From contig JANLYQ010000072.1 in the NCBI GenBank assembly GCA_031365725.1, positions 16,489 through 80,488 of the forward strand: a stretch of DNA of 64,000 nt. Reading direction: 5' to 3'. Shown piece by piece: positions 16,358 to 64,000 of the stretch; positions within the stretch are counted from its first letter, which is position 1; each line of letters begins with the position of its first letter. Origin of the DNA: Sporichthyaceae bacterium (GTDB lineage Bacteria; Actinomycetota; Actinomycetes; JACCUZ01). The notes beneath the pieces are model-generated. The model was not told where the DNA came from. It was given only the letters and a program-made list of their open reading frames with translations, and ran no database searches. Position numbers and translations under genes: made by a program.

Positions 16358-19218
16358 GACCGCTGCCCCGGCCGGGCCGCGAGACCGCGCGCGAAGAACC
16401 GATCCACGACGTCCTGGGCGGCCGCGCCCGTCTCGAACTCGCAGAACCGCTGCTGGAAGTCGGCGTAGCGATCGGCCCACTGCTCCGGCCGCTCCTGCAC
16501 CTCGCGCAGCGCCTCGATCAATCCTGCGGTGTCTTCGACCACTGGGCCCGGCGCGATGTCGGGCAGGTCGAGATAGGTGCCACGCTCGTCGCGGACGTAG
16601 TCCTCGTAGTCGTAGGTGTAGAACACCATCGGCTTGCCCGTGTTGGCGAAGTCGAACATCACCGAGGAATAGTCGGTCACCAGGACGTCCGCGACGAGCA
16701 TCAGCTCGGTCACGTCGTGCACCAGCGACACGTCGGCGACGAACGGGTCGTAGCGCGCCGACAGCTTGTAGCGGTCGAGGTAGTGGGTGCGCAGCATGAG
16801 GAACGAGTCATCGCCGAGCGAACGGCGCATGAGCTCGAGGTCCATCGGCAGGTCGTACTCCTTCTGCAGCCGACGGGCCCGGTCCCGGAAGGTCGGGCAG
16901 TACAGCACCAGCCGCCGGTCGGTCGGTAGCTGTAGCTGCTGCTTCTTGGCCAGCACCCAAGCCGGGTCTGCGCCGCGCACCAGGAAATCGTTGCGGGGCA
17001 AGCCTCTACGCACCAGCTCGCCCTCGTAGCCGTAAGACGTCACGAAGGTCTCGACGAAGTACTCGCTCGGCACCAGCAACGCGCTCCAGCGCCGCATCAT
17101 CGTCTTGTGCTGCTTTCGCACCGATGCTGAGGCCCGCTCCAGCGCCGGCGAGTCGAAGCCCATCCGCTTGAGCGGAGTGCCGTGCCAGGTCTGGACGTAG
17201 GTCGTCTCACGACGCCGGTTGAACATCCGCGGCAGTCCCTGGTTGTCCACCCAGAACTCCGCTCGCGCCAGGTCGTAGAGGTAGCGCCAGCTCTCGCGCT
17301 TGACCAGACGGGCACCCTCGGGAAAGCCGCGCTTGCTGCGGGCGTAGGACCACACCGGCTGAAGGCCCAGCCGGTCCAACCCGGTAGCCACCGCCGCCTC
17401 GTAGATGTAGCGCGGGCTGTCGCTGTACTGCAGGCCCATGTGCGACTCGAACACGGCGAGACCGGGCGTGACCGGCAGCTTGCGGAACAGCCGGTAGGCC
17501 TGCTTCTTCAAGGTCGGGTTGTTGCCGATCGCGCGCTTGGACCGCCAGCGGACCGAGTTGGTGACCCGCCCCGCCAGCAACGCCGCCTGCGCGTCAGCCT
17601 CGGTGCCTCCGACGTCGGGCAGCTGACGGAACGCCAGGTTGAGCCGGACCGTGGCGAAAGCCTCGACCTGACCGCGGGCCGCACCACCGAGGCGGGCGCG
17701 CACGGTGATGGGTCGTCCCGTGATGGCGGTCGGGTCCACCGACACCGGGCTGATGTTGACCTCCTCGCCGTTGCGGATGCGCATTGCGACATCCCACACC
17801 GGGTGCAGCTGGTCGAGGCGGCCGAGCGCCGCGTCCAGGTCGATCACGGTGCGGTAGTGCAGCCGCTTGCCCTCGATCCACCAGTCGCGCACGGGCTTGG
17901 CCCGGTGCGGACCGGTCCGGGCCCGGTTGTTCAGCTCGATGGAGAGCTCGAGGTCGTCACCCGGCGTGATCCGGCCGAGCGGGATGACCACCTGGCCCTG
18001 GATGCGCACGGTGGACCCGACGAGCTCGCCGGCGGTGATGAGGTTGTGCAGGACCAGCCGGCTGAACGGCAGCCGGTGGAACCCCATCTCGGTAACGTCC
18101 ATGACGGCACGGTCGTGCTCGGTGTCGAGGTACTTGTCCGACCAGAACACCCGTCCGTCCCGCTCGACGAGGTCGGTCGAGAGCGCGAAGCCGTGCCGCA
18201 GGTAGTCGACTGTCTTGAGGGTCTCTTCCACGTCGCGACGTCTGATCATGGCGACACAGATCCGCTCGACCGGATACACGAGGTCGAGGGTCTTCTCGCT
18301 GATGGTCTCGAGGTAGTCCGCCGCAAGGTCCATGAACTTGCGCTGGTAGTCCTCGTCGCGCTCGGGCAGGTCCGACAGATAGAGCTTGAGGTCGTGCCGG
18401 ATGAACTTGAAGTCCTTGTGCACCTTCAGATCGCCCGACCCGTGCTCACGCAGGAAGTCATCCATCATCCGGTGCACGGCGATGCGGTCGCGGAAGTTCT
18501 CGAACTCGTGCCGACGCTGGGTGATCGACGCCGCGTCTGCGTCCTCCACCACCCGCCAGTAGTAGATGACGTTGGGCACGACCGCGATCACCTTGGCCTG
18601 GCAGTAGACCTTGGTGGAGAACAGCGAGTCCTCGTAGTGAATGCCTTCGGGGAAGGTGATGCCGTTCTCGCGCAGGAAGTCACGCCGGTAGATCTTGTTG
18701 GTCGACAGCGGGTCGAAGAAGAGCAACGGGTTCTCGCGGATGCCGTTGTAGGTCACCCGCCGGGTGAACAGCTCCTTGACCCAGCCGGTCTCCCGGTCCC
18801 GGGTGAGGTTGACCCGCACCACCTGACCAGCCACCACGTCCGCGCCGGTGCGCTCGGCCGCGAGCAGCATGTTCTTGCAGGCGTGCCGCTCGAACACGTC
18901 GTCGCTGTCGAGGAACATCACGTAGGGCGCCCGCGCGTGCTCGAGCCCGACGTTACGTGGCCGGCTGCAGCCACCACTGTTGCTCGGCAGCTGTACGACG
19001 GTCAGCCGGGCATCCTCGCGTGCCATGGCCTCGGCCACCGCGACCGAGTCGTCGGAGGAAGCGTCGTCGACCACCACCACCTCGAGGTTGCGCAGCGACT
19101 GGTCCAGCACCGAACGGATGGCCGAGGGCAGGTTGGCGCTGTCGTTGTAGCCGATCAGCACCACCGTGACGTCGGGGGTCGCTCGGGCGGGGATGGGCCG
19201 GGTGGGCATGTGCACCAC
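16354..19218 (-). CDS. bifunctional glycosyltransferase family 2 / CDP-glycerol glycerophosphotransferase (TagF/TagB-like) protein
   Basis: N-terminal GT2: VTVVLIGYNDSANL, VVVVDDASSDDS, YVMFLDSDDVF. C-terminal Glyphos_transf domain: VFESHMGLQYSDSPRYIYE, YVQTWHGTPLKRMG, VLVTDYSSVMFDF. Confidence 0.85.
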   Translation of the reverse strand: MVHMPTRPIPARATPDVTVVLIGYNDSANLPSAIRSVLDQSLRNLEVVVVDDASSDDSVAVAEAMAREDARLTVVQLPSNSGGCSRPRNVGLEHARAPYVMFLDSDDVFERHACKNMLLAAERTGADVVAGQVVRVNLTRDRETGWVKELFTRRVTYNGIRENPLLFFDPLSTNKIYRRDFLRENGITFPEGIHYEDSLFSTKVYCQAKVIAVVPNVIYYWRVVEDADAASITQRRHEFENFRDRIAVHRMMDDFLREHGSGDLKVHKDFKFIRHDLKLYLSDLPERDEDYQRKFMDLAADYLETISEKTLDLVYPVERICVAMIRRRDVEETLKTVDYLRHGFALSTDLVERDGRVFWSDKYLDTEHDRAVMDVTEMGFHRLPFSRLVLHNLITAGELVGSTVRIQGQVVIPLGRITPGDDLELSIELNNRARTGPHRAKPVRDWWIEGKRLHYRTVIDLDAALGRLDQLHPVWDVAMRIRNGEEVNISPVSVDPTAITGRPITVRARLGGAARGQVEAFATVRLNLAFRQLPDVGGTEADAQAALLAGRVTNSVRWRSKRAIGNNPTLKKQAYRLFRKLPVTPGLAVFESHMGLQYSDSPRYIYEAAVATGLDRLGLQPVWSYARSKRGFPEGARLVKRESWRYLYDLARAEFWVDNQGLPRMFNRRRETTYVQTWHGTPLKRMGFDSPALERASASVRKQHKTMMRRWSALLVPSEYFVETFVTSYGYEGELVRRGLPRNDFLVRGADPAWVLAKKQQLQLPTDRRLVLYCPTFRDRARRLQKEYDLPMDLELMRRSLGDDSFLMLRTHYLDRYKLSARYDPFVADVSLVHDVTELMLVADVLVTDYSSVMFDFANTGKPMVFYTYDYEDYVRDERGTYLDLPDIAPGPVVEDTAGLIEALREVQERPEQWADRYADFQQRFCEFETGAAAQDVVDRFFARGLAARPGQRS

Positions 19219-50830: not shown

Positions 50831-51363
50831 CAGATGCCGAAGCCGACGCCCTTGTGCGCGACGCGGCGGCGCAACGACTCACCCTTGGCGCGCGCGGTGT
50901 CCCCCAGCGCCTGCTGGAACTCGACCATGAGCTGCTGCAGCGCCGGGTCCGACACCCCCAGGATGCGCGCGGCCAGCAGCCCCGCGTTGCGCCCACCGCC
51001 GACCGAGACGGTCGCCACGGGCACGCCCGCCGGCATCTGCACGATCGAGAGCAGCGAGTCGAGACCGTCGAGCTGTTCCAACGGCACCGGCACGCCGATG
51101 ACAGGCAGCGGGGTCACACTTGCCAGCATGCCGGGCAGGTGCGCCGCCCCGCCGGCACCGGCGATGATGACGCGCAGGCCGCGGCCGACCGCGCCCTCGC
51201 CGTAGGCGAGCATGTCGCGGGGCATCCGGTGCGCCGACACGACGTCGACCTCATGCGGCACCCCGAGCTCGTCCAGCGCCTTGGCCGCGTCCTCCATCAC
51301 CCGCCAGTCCGAGTCGCTGCCCATGACGATGCCGACGACCGGGGTCGGGTCGGACTCAGCCAT
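50830..51363 (-). CDS. purE: 5-(carboxyamino)imidazole ribonucleotide mutase
   Basis: [34 protein letters not shown]; ATG at 51361-51363. Confidence 0.9.
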
Positions 51364-52491
51364 CGATGTCTCCTCGCAGGAACGCCGCCGCGTGCCGGGC
51401 TCGCTCACGCACGTCCTCAGCATCGTCGCCCGGGACGGTCACGTGACCCACCTTTCGCCCAGGGCGGACGTCCTTGCCGTACATGTGGATGTGCACGCCA
51501 GGGTCGTGCGCCAGGCAGTGCAGGTAGCCGTCGTACATCTCCGGCAGCTCACCTCCGAGCACGTTCGCCATCACGACGTACGGCGCGGTGGCGCGGGTGT
51601 CGCCCAGCGGCAGGTCGAGGACCGCGCGCAGGTGCTGCTCGAACTGGCTGGTGCGGGCACCCTCGATGGTCCAGTGCCCGCTGTTGTGCGGGCGCATGGC
51701 CAGCTCGTTGACGAGGACTCCGGCGGGGGTGTCGAACATCTCGACAGCCATCACCCCGGTGACGCCGAGGCCCTCGGCGATGCGCAGCGCCGCCTGCTGC
51801 GCAGCGAGCGCGTGCTCCTCGGCGATCGGCGCCGGCGCCAGCACCTCGCGGCACACGCCGTCGACCTGCAGGGTCTCGACCACCGGCCACGCGGCGGCCT
51901 GCCCGTGCGGGCTGCGGGCGACCAGAGCAGCAAGCTCACGGGTGAAGGCGACCTTCTCCTCGGCCAGCAGCGGGGACCCCGCCGCGCGGGCGAACCAGTC
52001 CTCGGCATCGGCGGCTGCCTCGACCAGCCGCACACCTTTGCCGTCGTACCCGCCTCTCGGGGTCTTGAGCATCACGGGCCAGCCGACCTCGTCGCCGAAC
52101 GCCTGCAGCTCTCCGCTGCTCGCGACCGCAGCCCACCGTGGGCAGCGCACGCCGAGCTCGGTGAGCCGGCGCCGCATGACCAGCTTGTCCTGCGCGTGCT
52201 CCAGCGCGTCGGGGCCGGGGTGCACGACGACGCCCTCGGCCTGCAGGGTGCGCAGGTGCTGCGTCGGTACGTGCTCGTGGTCGAAGGTCAGCACGTCGCA
52301 CCCGGCAGCGAAGGCCCGCAGTGCGTCGAGGTCGTCCTCGGCCCCCACCACAGTGCCCGGCACGACCTGCGCGGCGCTGTCGTGGTCGTCCCGCGCGAGC
52401 ACCCGCAGCGTGATGCCCAGCCCGATCGCCGGTGGAGCCATCATCCGCGCGAGCTGCCCGCCACCCACCACACCCACCACTGGGAACCCCA
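51356..52491 (-). CDS. purK: N5-carboxyaminoimidazole ribonucleotide synthase
   Basis: [16 protein letters not shown]-grasp region [30 protein letters not shown]; GTG start at 52489-52491; stop overlaps purE start by 8 nt. Confidence 0.85.
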
Positions 52492-52528
52492 CGGCGGCAA
52501 CCCTAGCCAGCCGTGACCTCTTACCCAC

Positions 52529-52579
52529 CGAAGTGGACCGGCCACCTGCTGCGGGATCCACCACTCCTCCGGTCCAGTT
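52529..52579. repeat. 51-bp hairpin-forming repeat element, copy 1 (GAAGTGGACCGG ... CCGGTCCAGTTC)
   Basis: gaagtggaccggccacctgctgcgggatccaccactcctccggtccagttc; 12-nt arms inverted (1 mismatch). Lies upstream of the DUF559 gene in a divergent intergenic region. Confidence 0.6.
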
Positions 52580-52715
52580 CCGCACAGTCAGACTGCCTGT
52601 GGATGACCGACAGCCTGGATCGAGCCCACCGACCACGCTGTACGGCGTGCAGGAAGCATTCTCCTCCCGACGGCTACCGGCAGCGCTGCGTCCGCTTGCC
52701 ACCCGCCAGGACGAC

Positions 52716-53654
52716 ATGGTGACGAGGGAGCAGCTGCACCGGCTCGGGCTGGGTCATGACGCCGTCGCCTCCCGGACCGCTCAGGGGGTGTGGCGCGAGA
52801 TCGGGCCGCGCGTTGTCGTCCTGCACACCGGGCTGCTCACGCCGTCGCAACGCCGCTGGGCCGGGGCCCTGCACGTCGGGGATGGCGCGGTGCTGGCGAT
52901 GGCAACGGCCGCCGAGCTCGGTGGCCTGCGCGGCTTCGAGGCACCGACCGTGCACATCGCCATCCGGCACAGCCGCGAGGTCAGTCGGCTGGAGCACCCG
53001 CTGGTCACTGTGGCCGTGCACCAGACGCGGCACCCGGACGATCACGTGGTCCTCAGTGGTCCGCATCGACGCCACGACATCGCACGGGCAGCCGTCGAGC
53101 TGGCCTCCCAGAGCAGCAGCGAGGGTCGGTCACGAGCCGTCATCGCGGCCGTCGTCCAGCAGCGACTAGCTCGGCCGGCACACCTGCTCGAGATCCTCGA
53201 GTGTTGGACCACCCTGCCGCGTCGCAGGCTCATCCGCGAGACGATCCACGACGTCGAAGGCGGTGCTCAGTCGTTGCCCGAGCTCGATTTCGCCCGCGCC
53301 TGCCGTCGCGCCGGGCTGCCTGAGCCGACCCGGCAGCAGCGAGTCCGGCGCTCCGGAGGCTCGTGGTACCTCGACAACGACTTCACGCCGTGGCTCGTGA
53401 CGGTCGAGATCAACGGGGTTCAGCATCGTGAGCTGCTCGCGGCAGAGGCCGACGACCGAAGGAGGGCCGGCTTGCAGGTATTGGGGCGACTCGTGGTCGA
53501 CATCAGCAGCTGGACCGTCCGGCACCAGCCTCAGGTGGCCGTCCTACGCACGGCGGAAGCTCTGCTCTCTCGCGGGTGGACACCAAGCGCCAAGACGGTC
53601 AGGATCCTCACGAGCTATGCCGCCGCTCACGGCTGGACCGGTCTGACGCCATGA
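52716..53654 (+). CDS. DUF559 domain protein with AbiEi-antitoxin-like N-terminal wHTH (endonuclease-like fold, Vsr/MutH-type)
   Basis: MVTREQLHRLGLGHDAVASRTAQGVWREIGPRVVVLHTG (AbiEi_4-like N-terminus); C-terminal FARACRRAGLPEPTRQQRV...YLDNDFTPWLVTVEINGVQH (DUF559). The track ORF 51588..53654 was trimmed to the ATG at 52716. Confidence 0.6.
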   Translation: MVTREQLHRLGLGHDAVASRTAQGVWREIGPRVVVLHTGLLTPSQRRWAGALHVGDGAVLAMATAAELGGLRGFEAPTVHIAIRHSREVSRLEHPLVTVAVHQTRHPDDHVVLSGPHRRHDIARAAVELASQSSSEGRSRAVIAAVVQQRLARPAHLLEILECWTTLPRRRLIRETIHDVEGGAQSLPELDFARACRRAGLPEPTRQQRVRRSGGSWYLDNDFTPWLVTVEINGVQHRELLAAEADDRRRAGLQVLGRLVVDISSWTVRHQPQVAVLRTAEALLSRGWTPSAKTVRILTSYAAAHGWTGLTP

Positions 53655-53660
53655 CGGTGT

Positions 53661-53711
53661 GAAGTGGACCGGAGCAGTGGCGGGACCTGCTCCACTCCTC
53701 CGGTCCACTTC
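53661..53711. repeat. 51-bp hairpin-forming repeat element, copy 2 (GAAGTGGACCGG ... CCGGTCCACTTC); possible bidirectional terminator
   Basis: gaagtggaccggagcagtggcgggacctgctccactcctccggtccacttc; perfect 12-nt inverted arms. Shares the GAAGTGGACCGG and CCACTCCTCCGGTCCA blocks with copy 1. Lies between convergent genes. Confidence 0.6.
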
Positions 53712-53726
53712 GGCGAGAGGGGCCGG

Positions 53727-54881
53727 CTAGAGGCCGAGGTCGCGGGCGATGAGCATCCGCTGCACCTCGGAGGTGCCCTCGCCGATCTCGAGGATCTTCG
53801 AGTCCCGCCACATCCGAGCGACGGGGTACTCATTCATGAAGCCATAGCCACCATGTACCTGGGTGGCCTCGCGTGCGTTGGTGACCGCAACCTCCGAGGA
53901 GTACAGCTTGGCGATCGCGGCCTGGCGCTTGAACGGCTCGCCGCGCAGCATCCGGCCGGCCGCGTCGTAGTAGGACAGCCGAGCCGTGTGTGCCCGCACC
54001 TCCATGTCGGCGATCTTGAAGGCGATGGCCTGGTTGGCCCCGATCGGCCGGCCGAACGCCTCCCGCTCGCCTGCGTAGCGCACCGACTCGTCGAGACACC
54101 CTTGCGCCAGCCCGGTCGCGAGCGCGGCGATAGCGATGCGTCCCTCGTCCAGGATCGAGAGGAACTGCGCATAGCCGCGACCTTCGTCGCCGAGGAGGTT
54201 CCCGACCGGCACGTGTACGTCGACCAGCGAGAGCTCCCGGGTGTCGGAGGCGTTCCAGCCGACCTTGCTGTACTTCGGGGCAACCGTCAGCCCCGGAGTG
54301 CCCGCGGGCACGATCACCGTGGAGATCTGCGGTCGCCCGTCATCGTCCACGCCCGTGATGGCGGTGACCGTCACCAGTCCGGTGATGTCGGTGCCCGAGT
54401 TGGTGATGAACGCCTTGGTGCCGTTGATGATCCATTCGGAGCCGTCGGGAGAACGCCTGGCCGTCGTGCGGGTGCCGCCGGCATCGGACCCGGCGCCAGG
54501 CTCGGTCAGCCCGAACGCACCGAGCAGCTCGCCGGTGCACAGTCGCGGCAGCCACTCACTCTTCTGCTCCACCGTCCCGAAGCGGAAGATCGGCATGGCG
54601 CCGAGGGAGACGCCGGCCTCGAGCGTGATCGCCACCGACGAGTCGACCCGCGCGAGCTCCTCCAACGCGATGCACAGGGCGAAGTAGTCCCCGCCCATGC
54701 CGCCGTACTCCTCGGGGAAGGGCAGCCCGAACAGCCCCATCTCCCCCATCTGGCGCACGATGTCGTACGGGAACTCCTCGCGCTCGTAGAAGCCGCCGAT
54801 CACCGGCGCCACCACCTCGCGGGCAAACTCCCGCACCGTCGACCGCAACGCCTGCAGGTCCTCACTCAGTGGTTCGCTCAC
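53727..54881 (-). CDS. acyl-CoA dehydrogenase (isovaleryl-CoA dehydrogenase-like; leucine catabolism context)
   Basis: ACAD signatures GLTEPGAGSDA, GTKAFITNSG, QVHGGYGFMNEYPVARMWRDSKILEIGEGTSEVQ. GTG start at 54879-54881 preceded by GGGAGG SD (5-nt spacer). The track's ATG at 54947 adds 22 aa. Confidence 0.85.
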   Translation of the reverse strand: MSEPLSEDLQALRSTVREFAREVVAPVIGGFYEREEFPYDIVRQMGEMGLFGLPFPEEYGGMGGDYFALCIALEELARVDSSVAITLEAGVSLGAMPIFRFGTVEQKSEWLPRLCTGELLGAFGLTEPGAGSDAGGTRTTARRSPDGSEWIINGTKAFITNSGTDITGLVTVTAITGVDDDGRPQISTVIVPAGTPGLTVAPKYSKVGWNASDTRELSLVDVHVPVGNLLGDEGRGYAQFLSILDEGRIAIAALATGLAQGCLDESVRYAGEREAFGRPIGANQAIAFKIADMEVRAHTARLSYYDAAGRMLRGEPFKRQAAIAKLYSSEVAVTNAREATQVHGGYGFMNEYPVARMWRDSKILEIGEGTSEVQRMLIARDLGL

Positions 54882-54907
54882 GTGCGCCTCCCGACAATTG
54901 TCGCGTC

Positions 54908-54950
54908 GATGTGTCACGAAACCGGCACAGATGCGCTGACGTGTCACGTC
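54908..54950. promoter_or_regulatory. two copies of TGTGTCACG core, 30 bp apart, the second a perfect 6-1-6 palindrome GACGTGTCACGTC; candidate operator in the ACAD/GtrA divergent region
   Basis: gatgtgtcacgaa (54908-54920) and gacgtgtcacgtc (54938-54950), 30-70 nt upstream of the ACAD GTG start. Confidence 0.35.
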
Positions 54951-55554: not shown

Positions 55555-56491
55555 GGAACAGAGCGAACATCGCCGGCCGCTGCTGCACCAGCTCGAGCCG
55601 GCCACCATCTGCCTCGGCCAGCTCGCGGGCCACTGCCAGGCCAAGACCGGTGCCCTTGCGCCCGCTCACCGAGCGCTCGAAGATCCGAGCGCCGAGCTCG
55701 GGCGGGACACCCGGCCCCTCGTCGGAGACCTCGACGACCAGCGAGATGCCGGTGGAGCGAGTAGAGACCGTGACCGTGCCCGCGCCGTGGATCAAGCTGT
55801 TCTCGAGCAAGGTGGCAAGCACCTGCGAGAGGCCGTTGGGGGTGGCGAGCGCCACCAGTCCGCGGGTGCCGACCGCGCGCACCACCCGGTGTCGCGCGGC
55901 AAACGCCGGCTCCCACTCGACCACCTGCTGCAGCACGACCTCGTCCAGCGGCACCGGACCGGCGCGCAAGTTGTTGTCCCGTACGCCGTCCAGCAGGTGC
56001 TCGACGACCGTCGCGAGCCGCTCGACCTGAGCCAGCGCACTGGCCGCCTCGTCGCGGACGGTCTGCTGGTCCTCGGCCTGCAGGATCTCCTCCAGCCGCA
56101 TCGACAACGCCGTCAGCGGCGTGCGCAGCTGGTGGGACGCGTCGCTGGCGAACTGTCTTTCGGCGGCGATCAGCCGGTCGATGCGATCACCGCTGCGGTC
56201 AAGCAGGTCGGCGACCCGGTCCACCTCCGGCAGGCCGGACGCCGCGAACGGCAAGCGCTTCTGGCCGGATCCGAGCGCCTCGGCCCGACGCTGCAGACCG
56301 TCCAGCGGGCCGGTGACCATGCGCGCCTGCAGCACACCCACGGCGATCGCACCACCCGCAGCCACAAGTGCGGTCACGACAGCAGCGCTGATGATCGTGC
56401 TGTCACCCGCGGGCCTGAGTGCCAGCAGCACGAGAGGGACGCCGACGAGCAGCGCGGCGACCAGACCGACCGAGCCGGTCATCAGGAGCAT
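55526..56491 (-). CDS. sensor histidine kinase (HisKA + HATPase_c), partner of the adjacent OmpR-type regulator
   Basis: H-box ASHQLRTPLTALSMRLE; N/G boxes LLENSLIHGAG, DEGPGVPPE, GTGLGLAVAREL; two N-terminal TM helices. ATG at 56491 chosen so as not to overlap the regulator gene; the track start is 56644. Confidence 0.75.
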   Translation of the reverse strand: MLLMTGSVGLVAALLVGVPLVLLALRPAGDSTIISAAVVTALVAAGGAIAVGVLQARMVTGPLDGLQRRAEALGSGQKRLPFAASGLPEVDRVADLLDRSGDRIDRLIAAERQFASDASHQLRTPLTALSMRLEEILQAEDQQTVRDEAASALAQVERLATVVEHLLDGVRDNNLRAGPVPLDEVVLQQVVEWEPAFAARHRVVRAVGTRGLVALATPNGLSQVLATLLENSLIHGAGTVTVSTRSTGISLVVEVSDEGPGVPPELGARIFERSVSGRKGTGLGLAVARELAEADGGRLELVQQRPAMFALFLSAAGAGPR

Positions 56492-60084: not shown

Positions 60085-61632
60085 TCAGACCGGCGTGACA
60101 CCATGGCGGCGGCGGGAGAACGACCGGTCCTTGCTACGGGCCGCCTGCAGCCGCCGCACGAGCTCGCCGCGCAGTGCCCGCGGCTCGACGACGTCGTCGA
60201 CCACGAGCTCCGAGGCGAGACGCATGAGGTCGATGTCCTCGTCGTACTCCCGGCGCTTCTCGGCGACGAACGCCGCCCGCTCCGTCTCGTGGTCGATCGC
60301 GGCGATCTTGTTGGCGTAGACCGCGTTGACCGCGGCCTCGGCACCCATCACGGCGATCTTCGCCGTCGGCAGCGCCAACGTGGCGTCCGGCTCGAACCCG
60401 GGGCCGGCCATGGCATAGAGCCCTGCTCCGTAGGCCTTGCGCACGATGACGCACATCTTGGGCACCGTCGCCTCGGACACCGCGGTGATCATCTTGGCGC
60501 CGTGCCTGATGATGCCTTGCTTCTCGACCACGGAGCCCACCATGAAGCCGGGCACGTCGGAGAGGAACACCAGTGGCACGTTGAACGCATCACAGAGCTG
60601 GATGAACCGCGCCGCCTTGTCCGCGGAGTCGACGAACAGCACGCCACCCTTGAACATCGAGTTGTTCCCGAGCACCCCGACCACCTCACCGTCGAGACGG
60701 CCGAAGCCAACGGTCAGCTCGCGCGCCCACAGTGCCTGCACCTCGAGGAACGACCCCTCGTCGAGCAGACCCTTGACATAGCGGCGCATGTCGAAGGCCT
60801 GCCGGTCGCTGGCCGGCACCAGAGCAGCGAGGTCGACGTCCGGCGCGTGCCGCGGCTCGACCGCGGGCGGTCGGCCCTCCCAGCTCGAGGGCAGGTAGGA
60901 CAGGTAGGCGCGCACGGTGTCCAACGCCTCCGCCTCGGTGCCGACGAGGAAGTGCCCGACCCCGGACTCGGCGCAGTGCACCCGCGCCCCGCCCATCGCC
61001 TCGAGGGTGGTCTTCTCCCCCGTCACCATCTCGACCATCCGGTCCGACCCGAGGTACATCGACGCGTTGCCCTCGACCATGACCACGACGTCGCAGAACG
61101 CCGGGATGTAGGCACCGCCCGCCGCGGACGGGCCGAACAGCGCGCACACCTGCGGGATCGAGCCACTCGCCCGCACCTGGTTCCAGAAGATCTTGCCCGC
61201 ACCGCGGCGGCCGGGGAAGAGGTCGACCTGGTCGGTGATGCGGGCGCCGGCCGAGTCGACGAGATAGACCATCGGGACCCCGGTGCGATAGGCCGTCTCG
61301 ATGATCCGGATGATCTTCTCGACCGTACGAGCGCCCCACGAGCCGGCCTTCACGGTCGAGTCGTTGGCCATCAGGGCGATCGGCCGGCCGTCGAGGGTCG
61401 CGGTGCCGGTGATGACCCCGTCGGCGGGCAGGTCGGCCGCACTGGCGTTGGCGAAGGCGCCGTCCTCGACGAGGGACCCCTCGTCGATCAGCAACCGCAC
61501 CCGCTCGCGCGCGAAGAGCTTTCCCTTGGCGGCGTTGGCGTCGTGGTAGCGCACAGCACCGCCGGCCTCGACCCGGGCGCGCACGTCGCGCGGTTCCGGG
61601 TGGGTCGGCTCTGGTGGGTCGGCGTGTGACAC
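60085..61632 (-). CDS. acyl-CoA carboxylase beta subunit (carboxyltransferase; methylcrotonyl-/propionyl-CoA carboxylase-type)
   Basis: Carboxyl_trans motifs GTATLDGRPIALMANDSTVKAGSWG, VYLVDSAGARI, PQVCALFGPSAAGGAYIPAF, FKGGVLFVDSADKAARFIQLCDAFNVPLVFLSDVPGF. Confidence 0.9.
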   Translation of the reverse strand: MSHADPPEPTHPEPRDVRARVEAGGAVRYHDANAAKGKLFARERVRLLIDEGSLVEDGAFANASAADLPADGVITGTATLDGRPIALMANDSTVKAGSWGARTVEKIIRIIETAYRTGVPMVYLVDSAGARITDQVDLFPGRRGAGKIFWNQVRASGSIPQVCALFGPSAAGGAYIPAFCDVVVMVEGNASMYLGSDRMVEMVTGEKTTLEAMGGARVHCAESGVGHFLVGTEAEALDTVRAYLSYLPSSWEGRPPAVEPRHAPDVDLAALVPASDRQAFDMRRYVKGLLDEGSFLEVQALWARELTVGFGRLDGEVVGVLGNNSMFKGGVLFVDSADKAARFIQLCDAFNVPLVFLSDVPGFMVGSVVEKQGIIRHGAKMITAVSEATVPKMCVIVRKAYGAGLYAMAGPGFEPDATLALPTAKIAVMGAEAAVNAVYANKIAAIDHETERAAFVAEKRREYDEDIDLMRLASELVVDDVVEPRALRGELVRRLQAARSKDRSFSRRRHGVTPV

Positions 61633-63443: not shown

Positions 63444-64000
63444 TCACTCCCGTGCCGTACGCCGGGTCCGCGGTCCGGCGCGCAGCACCTGCGACGGCAG
63501 CGTGCGGCCGACGAGAACCTCGGCCTGGGCTGCCACGTCGATCATGGCCGCCAGATCAACCCCGGTAGCCACCCCCATGTCCTCCACCATGTGGACGAGC
63601 TCCTCGGTGGCGATGTTGCCGGTCGCACCGGGGGCGTAGGGGCAGCCACCGAGCCCCCCGACAGAGGCGTCGAAGTCGCTGACACCCAGCTCGAGAGCGG
63701 CCAGCACGTTGGCGAGGCCGGTGCCGCGGGTGTTGTGGAAGTGCAGGTTGAGCCCGGCGTCGGGCTGGGCCGAGCGGGTCTCGCCGATCAGTCGCGTGAC
63801 GCGGGTCGGGGTCGCCATGCCGGTGGTGTCGCCGTAGGACAGCGAGTCGGCGCCGTCGGCCAGGGCGCGGCCGGCAACGGCGAGGACCCGCGCGACCGGC
63901 ACGTCGCCCTCGTAGGGGCAGCCCCACGCGGTGGAGACGATGACCTGCACGGTGGCCGATCGCGCGTGTGCGAGGTCGATGATCGCCGCGATGTCGTCGA
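63444..64000 (-). CDS. hydroxymethylglutaryl-CoA lyase (C-terminal part; N-terminus beyond window end)
   Basis: LHFHNTRGTGLANVLAALELGV, GLGGCPYAPGATGNIATEELV (HMGL-like TIM barrel); ORF open to window end. Confidence 0.8.
   Translation of the reverse strand, partial: DDIAAIIDLAHARSATVQVIVSTAWGCPYEGDVPVARVLAVAGRALADGADSLSYGDTTGMATPTRVTRLIGETRSAQPDAGLNLHFHNTRGTGLANVLAALELGVSDFDASVGGLGGCPYAPGATGNIATEELVHMVEDMGVATGVDLAAMIDVAAQAEVLVGRTLPSQVLRAGPRTRRTARE

Follow-up and report, generated by a model that had tools for sequence, protein, structure and literature searches.

Gene X and two copies of a palindromic element lie between purK and an acyl-CoA dehydrogenase gene (ACAD) in the genome of a Sporichthyaceae bacterium (GCA_031365725.1, contig JANLYQ010000072.1). 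The stretch analysed, hereafter the window, comprises 64,000 nucleotides (positions 16,489 to 80,488 of the forward strand), and the source genome was examined over these 64 kb only. The order of features is purE and purK on the minus strand, copy 1 of the element, X on the plus strand, copy 2, and ACAD on the minus strand. X (52599..53654, plus strand) encodes 351 amino acids from GTG 52599; an alternative start at GTG 52647 would give 335 amino acids. The two copies resemble repetitive extragenic palindromic (REP) sequences and have no assigned strand. Copy 1 (52530..52580) lies upstream of X in the intergenic region between the divergent purK and X genes. It takes up most of that region, which is approximately 85-105 nt long, and ends 18 nt before GTG 52599. 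Copy 2 (53661..53711) follows the X stop codon by 6 nt and separates X from the convergent ACAD gene. The first-pass annotation of this DNA had described two 51-bp elements flanking one gene; the pair is real, although copy 1 had been placed one base off (52529-52579). It had also described copy 1 as standing in a divergent, non-terminator position, which agrees with its location between purK (minus strand) and X (plus strand).

Both copies are 51 nt long and have the form GAAGTGGACCGG ... CCGGTCCA(G/C)TTC, with a 27-nt interior. The 12-nt arms and the overall likeness of about 75% that were noticed at first sight are confirmed, and the likeness exceeds the background of the 64-kb window. The arm 12-mer, with at most one mismatch, occurs 6 times where 0.54 occurrences are expected, a count reached in none of 100 shuffles. 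For the 20-mer right arm with at most three mismatches there are 3 occurrences against an expectation of 0.00, again more than in any shuffle. Full copies of the element in the window are these two only. Lone single-arm matches, each with one mismatch and no partner arm, lie at 1893-1904 and 56216-56227 and are probably chance occurrences (0.54 expected per window). Copy 2 folds strongly (-38.4 kcal/mol, z -3.6; z -4.6 on the minus strand), and copy 1 folds through its arms alone (z approximately -1). No canonical terminator (GC-rich hairpin plus T-run) was found in 52350-53850 by a test that covers the U-tract type only. With no such site, and with copy 1 in a divergent region, the elements were rejected as intrinsic terminators. 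A promoter scan of the locus found nothing, and Rfam returned only sub-threshold generic hairpin matches of the element to miRNA models.

The same element is dispersed in related genomes. The motif GAAG(T/C)GGACCGG-N27-CCGGTCC(A/G)CTTC is present at more than 118 sites in approximately 20 uncultured Actinomycetota genomes, which supports the first description of the copies as REP-like rather than simple terminators. These sites come from an exact-pattern scan (AAGTGGACCGG-N27-CCGGTCC, one genome per species) that returned at least 118 stretches. Nearly all of the matches listed belong to about 20 uncultured Actinomycetota metagenome-assembled genomes (MAGs), with at least 12 loci in the richest MAG; these MAGs include CAVSKC01, DASVBQ01, JAVEDA01, CAWARY01, CAWBMM01 and CAWHJC01. 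A handful of exact matches in unrelated phyla are chance hits. Three contigs of JAJAYQ01 labelled Spirochaetaceae (L035, L069, L115) and one of DASTYP01 labelled Limnocylindria (L025) carry the actinobacterial purK-X-ACAD synteny or the repeat, and their bin labels probably reflect mis-binning.

A relaxed scan collected 139 distinct copies with a clear logo and the consensus ccGAAGYGGACCGGCT-N23-AGCCGGTCCRCTTCgg. Across copies the arms are 97-100% conserved, and pair, at positions 6-12 and 40-46. The spacing is invariant: scans open to 24-30 or 25-29 nt returned only copies with exactly 27 nt between the 12-mers. Arm position 5/47 is a degenerate Y/R position. The two arms vary independently at this position (70/33/27/8 fits independence), and the idea that T:G or C:A mispairs there are Vsr substrates was rejected. 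Interior pairing is modestly above that of column-shuffled controls (0.573 vs 0.463±0.012), and the mean folding energy of -32.2 kcal/mol, compared with -30.3 in shuffles, is likewise a modest effect. The interior consensus is genome-specific, and within a genome it reappears, 83-96% identical and in either orientation, on contigs that are not linked; in JBBRHF01, for example, the interiors on five contigs are 83-96% identical. This recurrence indicates that whole units have been copied within genomes.

Most copies are intergenic. A rough gene model placed 47 copies between tandem genes, 35 between convergent genes and 18 between divergent genes; a further 11 were scored as lying within an open reading frame (ORF), mostly artefacts of the rough model. 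Repeats often form tandem clusters at distances of 65-95 nt. A second subtype, AAGTGGCCCCGC...GCGGGGCCACTT (GGCCCCG arms), often lies approximately 64 nt from a copy of the main type (GGACCGG arms). Such hetero-pairs, which resemble bacterial interspersed mosaic elements (BIMEs), are found at L010 3259-3372, L077 7007-7119, L081 3008-3119, L085 2471-2584 and L121 785-896. At L166 11030-11270, three repeat copies lie inside an 87-nt tandem repeat directly after the X stop codon. Around repeat copies, direct duplications 3-8 nt long are not above expectation, giving no sign of target-site duplications. Judged by its distribution, the element behaves like a REP-like family of fixed length that is mostly intergenic, sometimes tandem and free of target-site duplications. 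The first-pass annotation had asked whether the element might be confined to these two sites and whether orthologous loci might carry the gene without repeats; the element occurs at many sites, and the orthologous loci also have repeats.

What had been overlooked is a specific, conserved partnership of the repeats and X. Loci with X orthologues were found in two ways, by the DNA pattern or independently by protein (contig search and metagenome scan). Most repeat copies have no X nearby. Every X orthologue retrieved has repeats on each observable side, and at some loci there are 2-3 copies per side. Equivalents of copy 1 occupy the same place at L001, L003, L004, L009, L048, L060, L105, L111, L118, L123, L124, L127, L129, L166 and L167. 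Within syntenic windows of 8-64 kb the copies that flank X are nearly the sole copies (2/2 in the source window, 2/3 in L004 and 4/4 in L166). The downstream repeat starts 5-45 nt past the X stop codon in most orthologues, and up to approximately 140 nt past it in four. The interiors of the two copies that flank one X are more alike than those of random pairs (mean likeness 0.64 vs 0.46, permutation p<5e-5). The GGCCCCG subtype takes the place of the main type in bracketing X at L128, L166 and L170, and a GGCCCGG variant does so at L146. When ORFs adjacent to repeats were clustered, the recurrent families were X and its fixed neighbours purK and ACAD only, and no RAYT-like candidate (REP-associated tyrosine transposase) was among these clusters.

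Nearly all orthologous loci have a conserved CTGTGGA/GTG motif 7-19 nt beyond the upstream repeat. In the window this motif (52597..52603, plus strand) holds the candidate start codon GTG 52599 and resembles the arm core GTGGAC. In L003, L080 and L111 the CTGTGGA(C/T) motif is out of frame with X, which suggests conservation at the DNA level and not only of a start codon. In L003, purK, purE and ACAD are themselves broken up by apparent frameshifts, probably through assembly error, so that reading-frame arguments from this locus are weak.

The association extends to more distant relatives of X, where the palindromes differ. Twenty-six distant homologues (33-50% identity) were examined, most of them at other genomic sites; L128 and L146, whose repeats have variant arms, occupy the purK site. 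Palindromes of other sequences, 40-57 nt long, bracket at least 15 of the 26; the two within a locus are 80-94% identical and lie 1078-1170 nt apart. These include ACTGTCGG... at L131, GATCTTGG... at L144 and L148, GGTGCCGTTTCG... at L162 and CTCCGGAG... at L138. A strict test asked for an exact 10-mer hairpin arm common to the upstream and downstream flanks of a gene: 21/37 assessable X homologues qualify, compared with 2/660 other genes at the same loci. Taken together, these comparisons make a specific association of the repeat family with X very probable.

The protein itself falls largely below the thresholds of family databases. Pfam returned no match at threshold for the window X, with AbiEi_4 alone at E=0.017, and DUF559 (PF04480) did not match even at E<=10. 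NCBIfam and PHROGs gave no matches, and the family profile, run against PDB sequences, gave nothing significant. Across the family, AbiEi_4 matches 26/38 homologues and DUF559 weakly matches 13/38 (best E=0.004). The PADLOC AbiEi model spans residues 28-205 of X (E=2.5e-6). The DUF559/AbiEi label given at first reading is thus below the Pfam and NCBIfam thresholds for the window protein, and is supported by family-level matches, PADLOC and Foldseek.

An AlphaFold model built from a 38-sequence alignment has a mean predicted local distance difference test score (pLDDT) of 86.8 and a predicted template modelling score (pTM) of 0.78; residues 1-29 have low pLDDT. In Foldseek searches the AbiEi antitoxin 6y8q (E=1e-5) and M. 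tuberculosis Rv2827c (1zel) are matches to the N-terminal ~200 residues. The C-terminal ~100 residues match the catalytic domain of I-Bth0305I (3r3p; probability 1.0, TM 0.75 normalised to the target) as well as the DUF559 protein NGO0050 (3hrl). Hence, by its predicted structure, X joins an AbiEi-type winged-helix module to a DUF559/Vsr-like nuclease domain. The winged helix and the C-terminal domain of the AbiEi-like part cover residues ~28-205, and the nuclease-like domain covers residues ~221-325. The nuclease domain has the conserved motif S-L-P-E ... L-D ... E-x-N-G-x-x-H ... D-x-x-R ... G-R. All 38 homologues (43-87% identity) share residues E228, D259, E270, N272, G273, H276, R289, R297 and R308, and D259, E270, N272 and H276 form a putative active site. 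The motif in X departs at one position from E-x-D-G-x-x-H, which we take to be the canonical DUF559 form.

No AbiEii (DUF1814) partner gene lies beside X in the window or in any of the relatives; the neighbours are purK and ACAD. X has no methyltransferase partner and is not set in an intron or intein. A profile search for the wider family returned 14,219 clusters at E<=0.001, 4,684 at E<=1e-10 and 542 at E<=1e-30. In actinobacteria, AbiEi_4/DUF559 proteins at large are abundant but not known to have been characterised.

X is a long-standing resident of its site. Almost all of its close and moderately distant homologues were recovered from soil metagenomes or from MAGs of uncultured Actinomycetes, of which some bear the label Sporichthyaceae. 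Wherever the surroundings of an orthologue of 45-87% identity are known, on more than 20 contigs, the order is purK, X, ACAD, GtrA. X is 45-65% identical across contigs on which purK and ACAD are 80-86% identical, which indicates that X evolves fast in place. Its GC content matches the surroundings, a tblastn search of 72,556 plasmids found no match, and multicopy X was not seen. L113 (440-800) and L164 (1450-1810) lack X between purK and ACAD and retain short X remnants. The arrangement purK-[one repeat]-ACAD in L113 was considered as an ancestral empty site and rejected, since X N-terminal codons (RRLPAALRPL) remain; L164 likewise keeps X codons. Both are deletion remnants, so the search for empty sites in relatives, suggested with the first description, found no ancestral one. 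L071 (5099-5990) carries a frameshifted X pseudogene. As judged from these comparisons, X is vertically inherited in the purK-ACAD slot and is not a recently inserted cassette. In L168 (8749-11340), a Sporichthyaceae MAG, a 45% homologue without matched flanking palindromes lies between purM and a DUF3073 gene, and so again adjoins a purine-biosynthesis gene.

We favour, at somewhat better than an even chance, a reading in which X is the cognate binding or processing protein of the repeat family and the upstream copy is its operator, an arrangement like that of RAYT and REP with an unrelated protein. X would recognise the conserved 14-16-nt arms held at fixed spacing, because it has an AbiEi-type DNA-binding module and because the spacing of the arms is fixed; direct binding of the repeats by X is the more secure part of this proposal and is probable. 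The upstream copy would serve as an operator through which bound X autoregulates, as in AbiEi antitoxins, and perhaps affects purK, because that copy fills most of the purK/X intergenic region. For autoregulation through the upstream copy the chances appear about even. The nuclease domain may nick or process the palindromes, as duplex, cruciform or single-stranded hairpin, leading to their maintenance and occasional copying genome-wide. That X cleaves, mobilises or copies the repeats is the more doubtful part.

Several observations weigh against this reading. Five homologues of 34-45% identity (L145, L147, L153, L154 and L168) lack matched palindromes; the association accordingly marks out a subfamily and not the AbiEi_4/DUF559 proteins as a whole. 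No fixed relative orientation of the two flanking copies was found between loci. The asparagine in E-x-N-G-x-x-H, where aspartate would be expected, leaves the catalytic competence of X uncertain. Genomes that have lost X (L113, CAWBMM01) or carry a degraded copy of it (L071, CAWHJC01) keep at least 5-8 repeat loci, and the repeats thus persist without an intact X at the purK-ACAD site. The self-complementarity of the interiors is only modest (0.57 vs 0.46; -32.2 vs -30.3 kcal/mol). The dispersal is seen in relatives, and the 64 kb of the source genome hold just the two copies. The case for a partnership of repeat and X is one of comparative anatomy throughout.

Among the alternatives, the one that survives best is that X is an AbiEi-type repressor and the palindromes are its operators or architectural sites, with no copying; the nuclease-like domain would then be inactive or serve dimerisation. 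The AbiEi fold and the PADLOC AbiEi match agree with such a role, as do arms conserved at a strict 27-nt spacing around a variable interior, an upstream copy that overlaps the sole promoter space available to X and purK, and the replacement of E-x-D-G by E-x-N-G. However, most copies are at gene 3' ends or between convergent genes, not at promoters, tandem clusters 65-95 nt apart are common, and conservation of the downstream copy, past the X stop codon, equals that of the upstream one. The genome-specific interiors on unlinked contigs and in both orientations point to whole-unit copying rather than to convergent operators, and the residues of the nuclease motif are invariant. We regard a purely regulatory role as unlikely.

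A passive origin is less probable still. Ordinary REP or terminator-like hairpins could have landed beside X in an ancestor and been inherited with no functional link. Common descent could explain much, since the loci with the same repeat are orthologous; repeats outlast X in genomes where it has decayed, and some repeat positions away from X are likewise shared between genomes, in small clusters. Common descent does not account for the distant, non-orthologous homologues, whose palindromes are different yet internally matched on both sides, nor for arms common to both sides of the gene in 21/37 X homologues against 2/660 controls. Other repeat positions in the syntenic region, such as L004 position 3664, are not conserved, whereas X is always flanked. 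In addition, copy 1 is in a divergent promoter region and neither copy matches the canonical terminator pattern.

The small mobile cassette proposed at first, an insertion sequence (IS)-like or homing-endonuclease unit inserted between purK and ACAD and movable or excisable through its repeats, is very improbable: the palindrome-ORF-palindrome unit is compact, its nuclease domain resembles the homing endonuclease I-Bth0305I, distant homologues are at other genomic sites and X has been lost from two loci, but the slot is identical in more than 20 contigs across 45-87% protein identity, no compositional anomaly, target-site duplication or plasmid copy was found, multicopy X was not seen, and the X-less sites are degradation products that keep X codons, not clean excisions or empty sites. 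An ancient mobile origin of X is compatible with the favoured reading of X as the cognate protein of the repeats.

Repeats with a dedicated, repeat-flanked partner gene have so far been understood through one protein family, the RAYTs, mainly in Proteobacteria. Such RAYT-REP/REPIN systems were reportedly described by Nunvar in 2010 and by Bertels and Rainey in 2011 (PMC3116915). The X system resembles them in that its extragenic palindromes are dispersed, sometimes clustered and without target-site duplications, and in that one chromosomal gene has family members on both flanks. Different protein lineages have different cognate palindromes, as in RAYT-REP systems. The X slot is constant across species, without plasmid copies, apparently vertically inherited and occupied by a fast-evolving gene (45-65% identity vs 80-86% for the neighbours). 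RAYT genes likewise occupy the same extragenic slot across species, flanked by cognate repeats and without plasmid copies, and the faster evolution of X than of its neighbours is a further trait in common with them (bioRxiv 10.1101/2021.07.10.451892).

There are differences too. X is not a HUH/Y1 protein of the IS200 type; Pfam, NCBIfam, PADLOC and fold searches point to an AbiEi-like protein with a DUF559/Vsr-like (PD-(D/E)xK-type) domain, and identity as a RAYT was rejected for want of a HUH/Y1 fold. The repeat is a near-perfect palindrome of 51-55 nt, with 14-16-nt arms and a fixed 23-nt centre, and not a REP of 20-40 nt. The copies that flank X lack a consistent relative orientation, and the hosts are Actinomycetota instead of mainly Proteobacteria. 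In the REP superfamilies described by Di Nocera et al. (2013, PMC3733652), one end carries the tetranucleotide GTAG or CGTC. In contrast, the logo of the X repeat begins (c)cGAAGYGG, is symmetric and has no GTAG/CGTC head. The generic features of the REP class are shared: a stem-loop palindrome with many extragenic copies in both orientations and in clusters, the dispersal being met in related genomes. The enterobacterial BIMEs offer a further parallel in the GGACCGG and GGCCCCG subtypes lying side by side at ~64 nt and in the tandem arrays; sequences, sizes and host phylum differ. BIMEs are bound by IHF (integration host factor) or gyrase.

X shares with the AbiE type IV antitoxin AbiEi the fold of a winged helix plus C-terminal domain (6y8q, 1zel and the PADLOC AbiEi match). 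AbiEi autoregulates by binding inverted repeats of its own promoter, and an inverted repeat lies directly upstream of X too. Unlike AbiEi, X has no AbiEii nucleotidyltransferase partner and has an extra nuclease-like domain; its inverted repeat is also found downstream of the gene and at many sites in related genomes. An AbiE toxin-antitoxin pair was rejected because no AbiEii partner lies beside X. The C-terminal ~100 residues share the fold of DUF559/Vsr-like endonucleases (3r3p, 3hrl, Vsr) together with conserved acidic and His residues. They differ in that the window X is under the Pfam threshold and asparagine replaces the aspartate of E-x-D-G. Two other identities were considered for the repeats and rejected. 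Miniature inverted-repeat transposable elements were set aside, as there are no target-site duplications and no IS was found. Integron attC sites were set aside as well: the arms GAAGYGGACCGG are without GTTRRRY, the copies are single and dispersed, and there is no integrase in the neighbourhood.

We class X and its repeats with the REP-partner systems, X representing a new kind of partner protein. A literature search, of incomplete coverage so that an earlier description is possible, found nothing linking DUF559/AbiEi proteins to palindromic repeats; nothing on REP-partner systems in actinomycetes was found in this same incomplete coverage. More broadly, and tentatively, the X family may be a second, non-HUH class of REP-associated, vertically inherited proteins of 'domesticated' elements, in which each lineage maintains and occasionally copies its own ~50-nt palindromes in Actinomycetota. 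If so, an unrelated nuclease family has taken the same positional role in Actinomycetota, the arrangement has evolved more than once, and the X family is an independent invention of the RAYT-REPIN lifestyle. The analysis predicts specific DNA substrates for many members of the uncharacterised X family. The arms, the spacing and the candidate catalytic residues are defined well enough for the design of direct binding and cleavage assays. For annotation, hairpins of this kind are not to be named terminators and X is not to be named an antitoxin.

PurK (51356..52513, minus strand) has ATP-grasp and PurK_C domains, and its start codon lies ~15-40 nt from copy 1. ACAD (53727..54947, minus strand) is convergent with X and has its stop at 53727. 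Beyond ACAD lie GtrA, a histidine kinase with a response regulator, a gene for a large membrane protein, a carboxyltransferase gene, a gene for a GAF-GGDEF protein and an HMGL-like gene. The leucine-catabolism-like genes, namely ACAD (53727-54947), the carboxyltransferase (60085-61632) and the HMGL-like gene (63447-63950), may belong to one liu-type cluster interrupted by purEK, as first proposed; they are dispersed among unrelated genes (GtrA, the two-component system, the membrane protein and the GGDEF gene). The order of this ACAD/carboxyltransferase/HMGL-like region is identical in the relatives L004, L166 and L170, which indicates that the arrangement is old.

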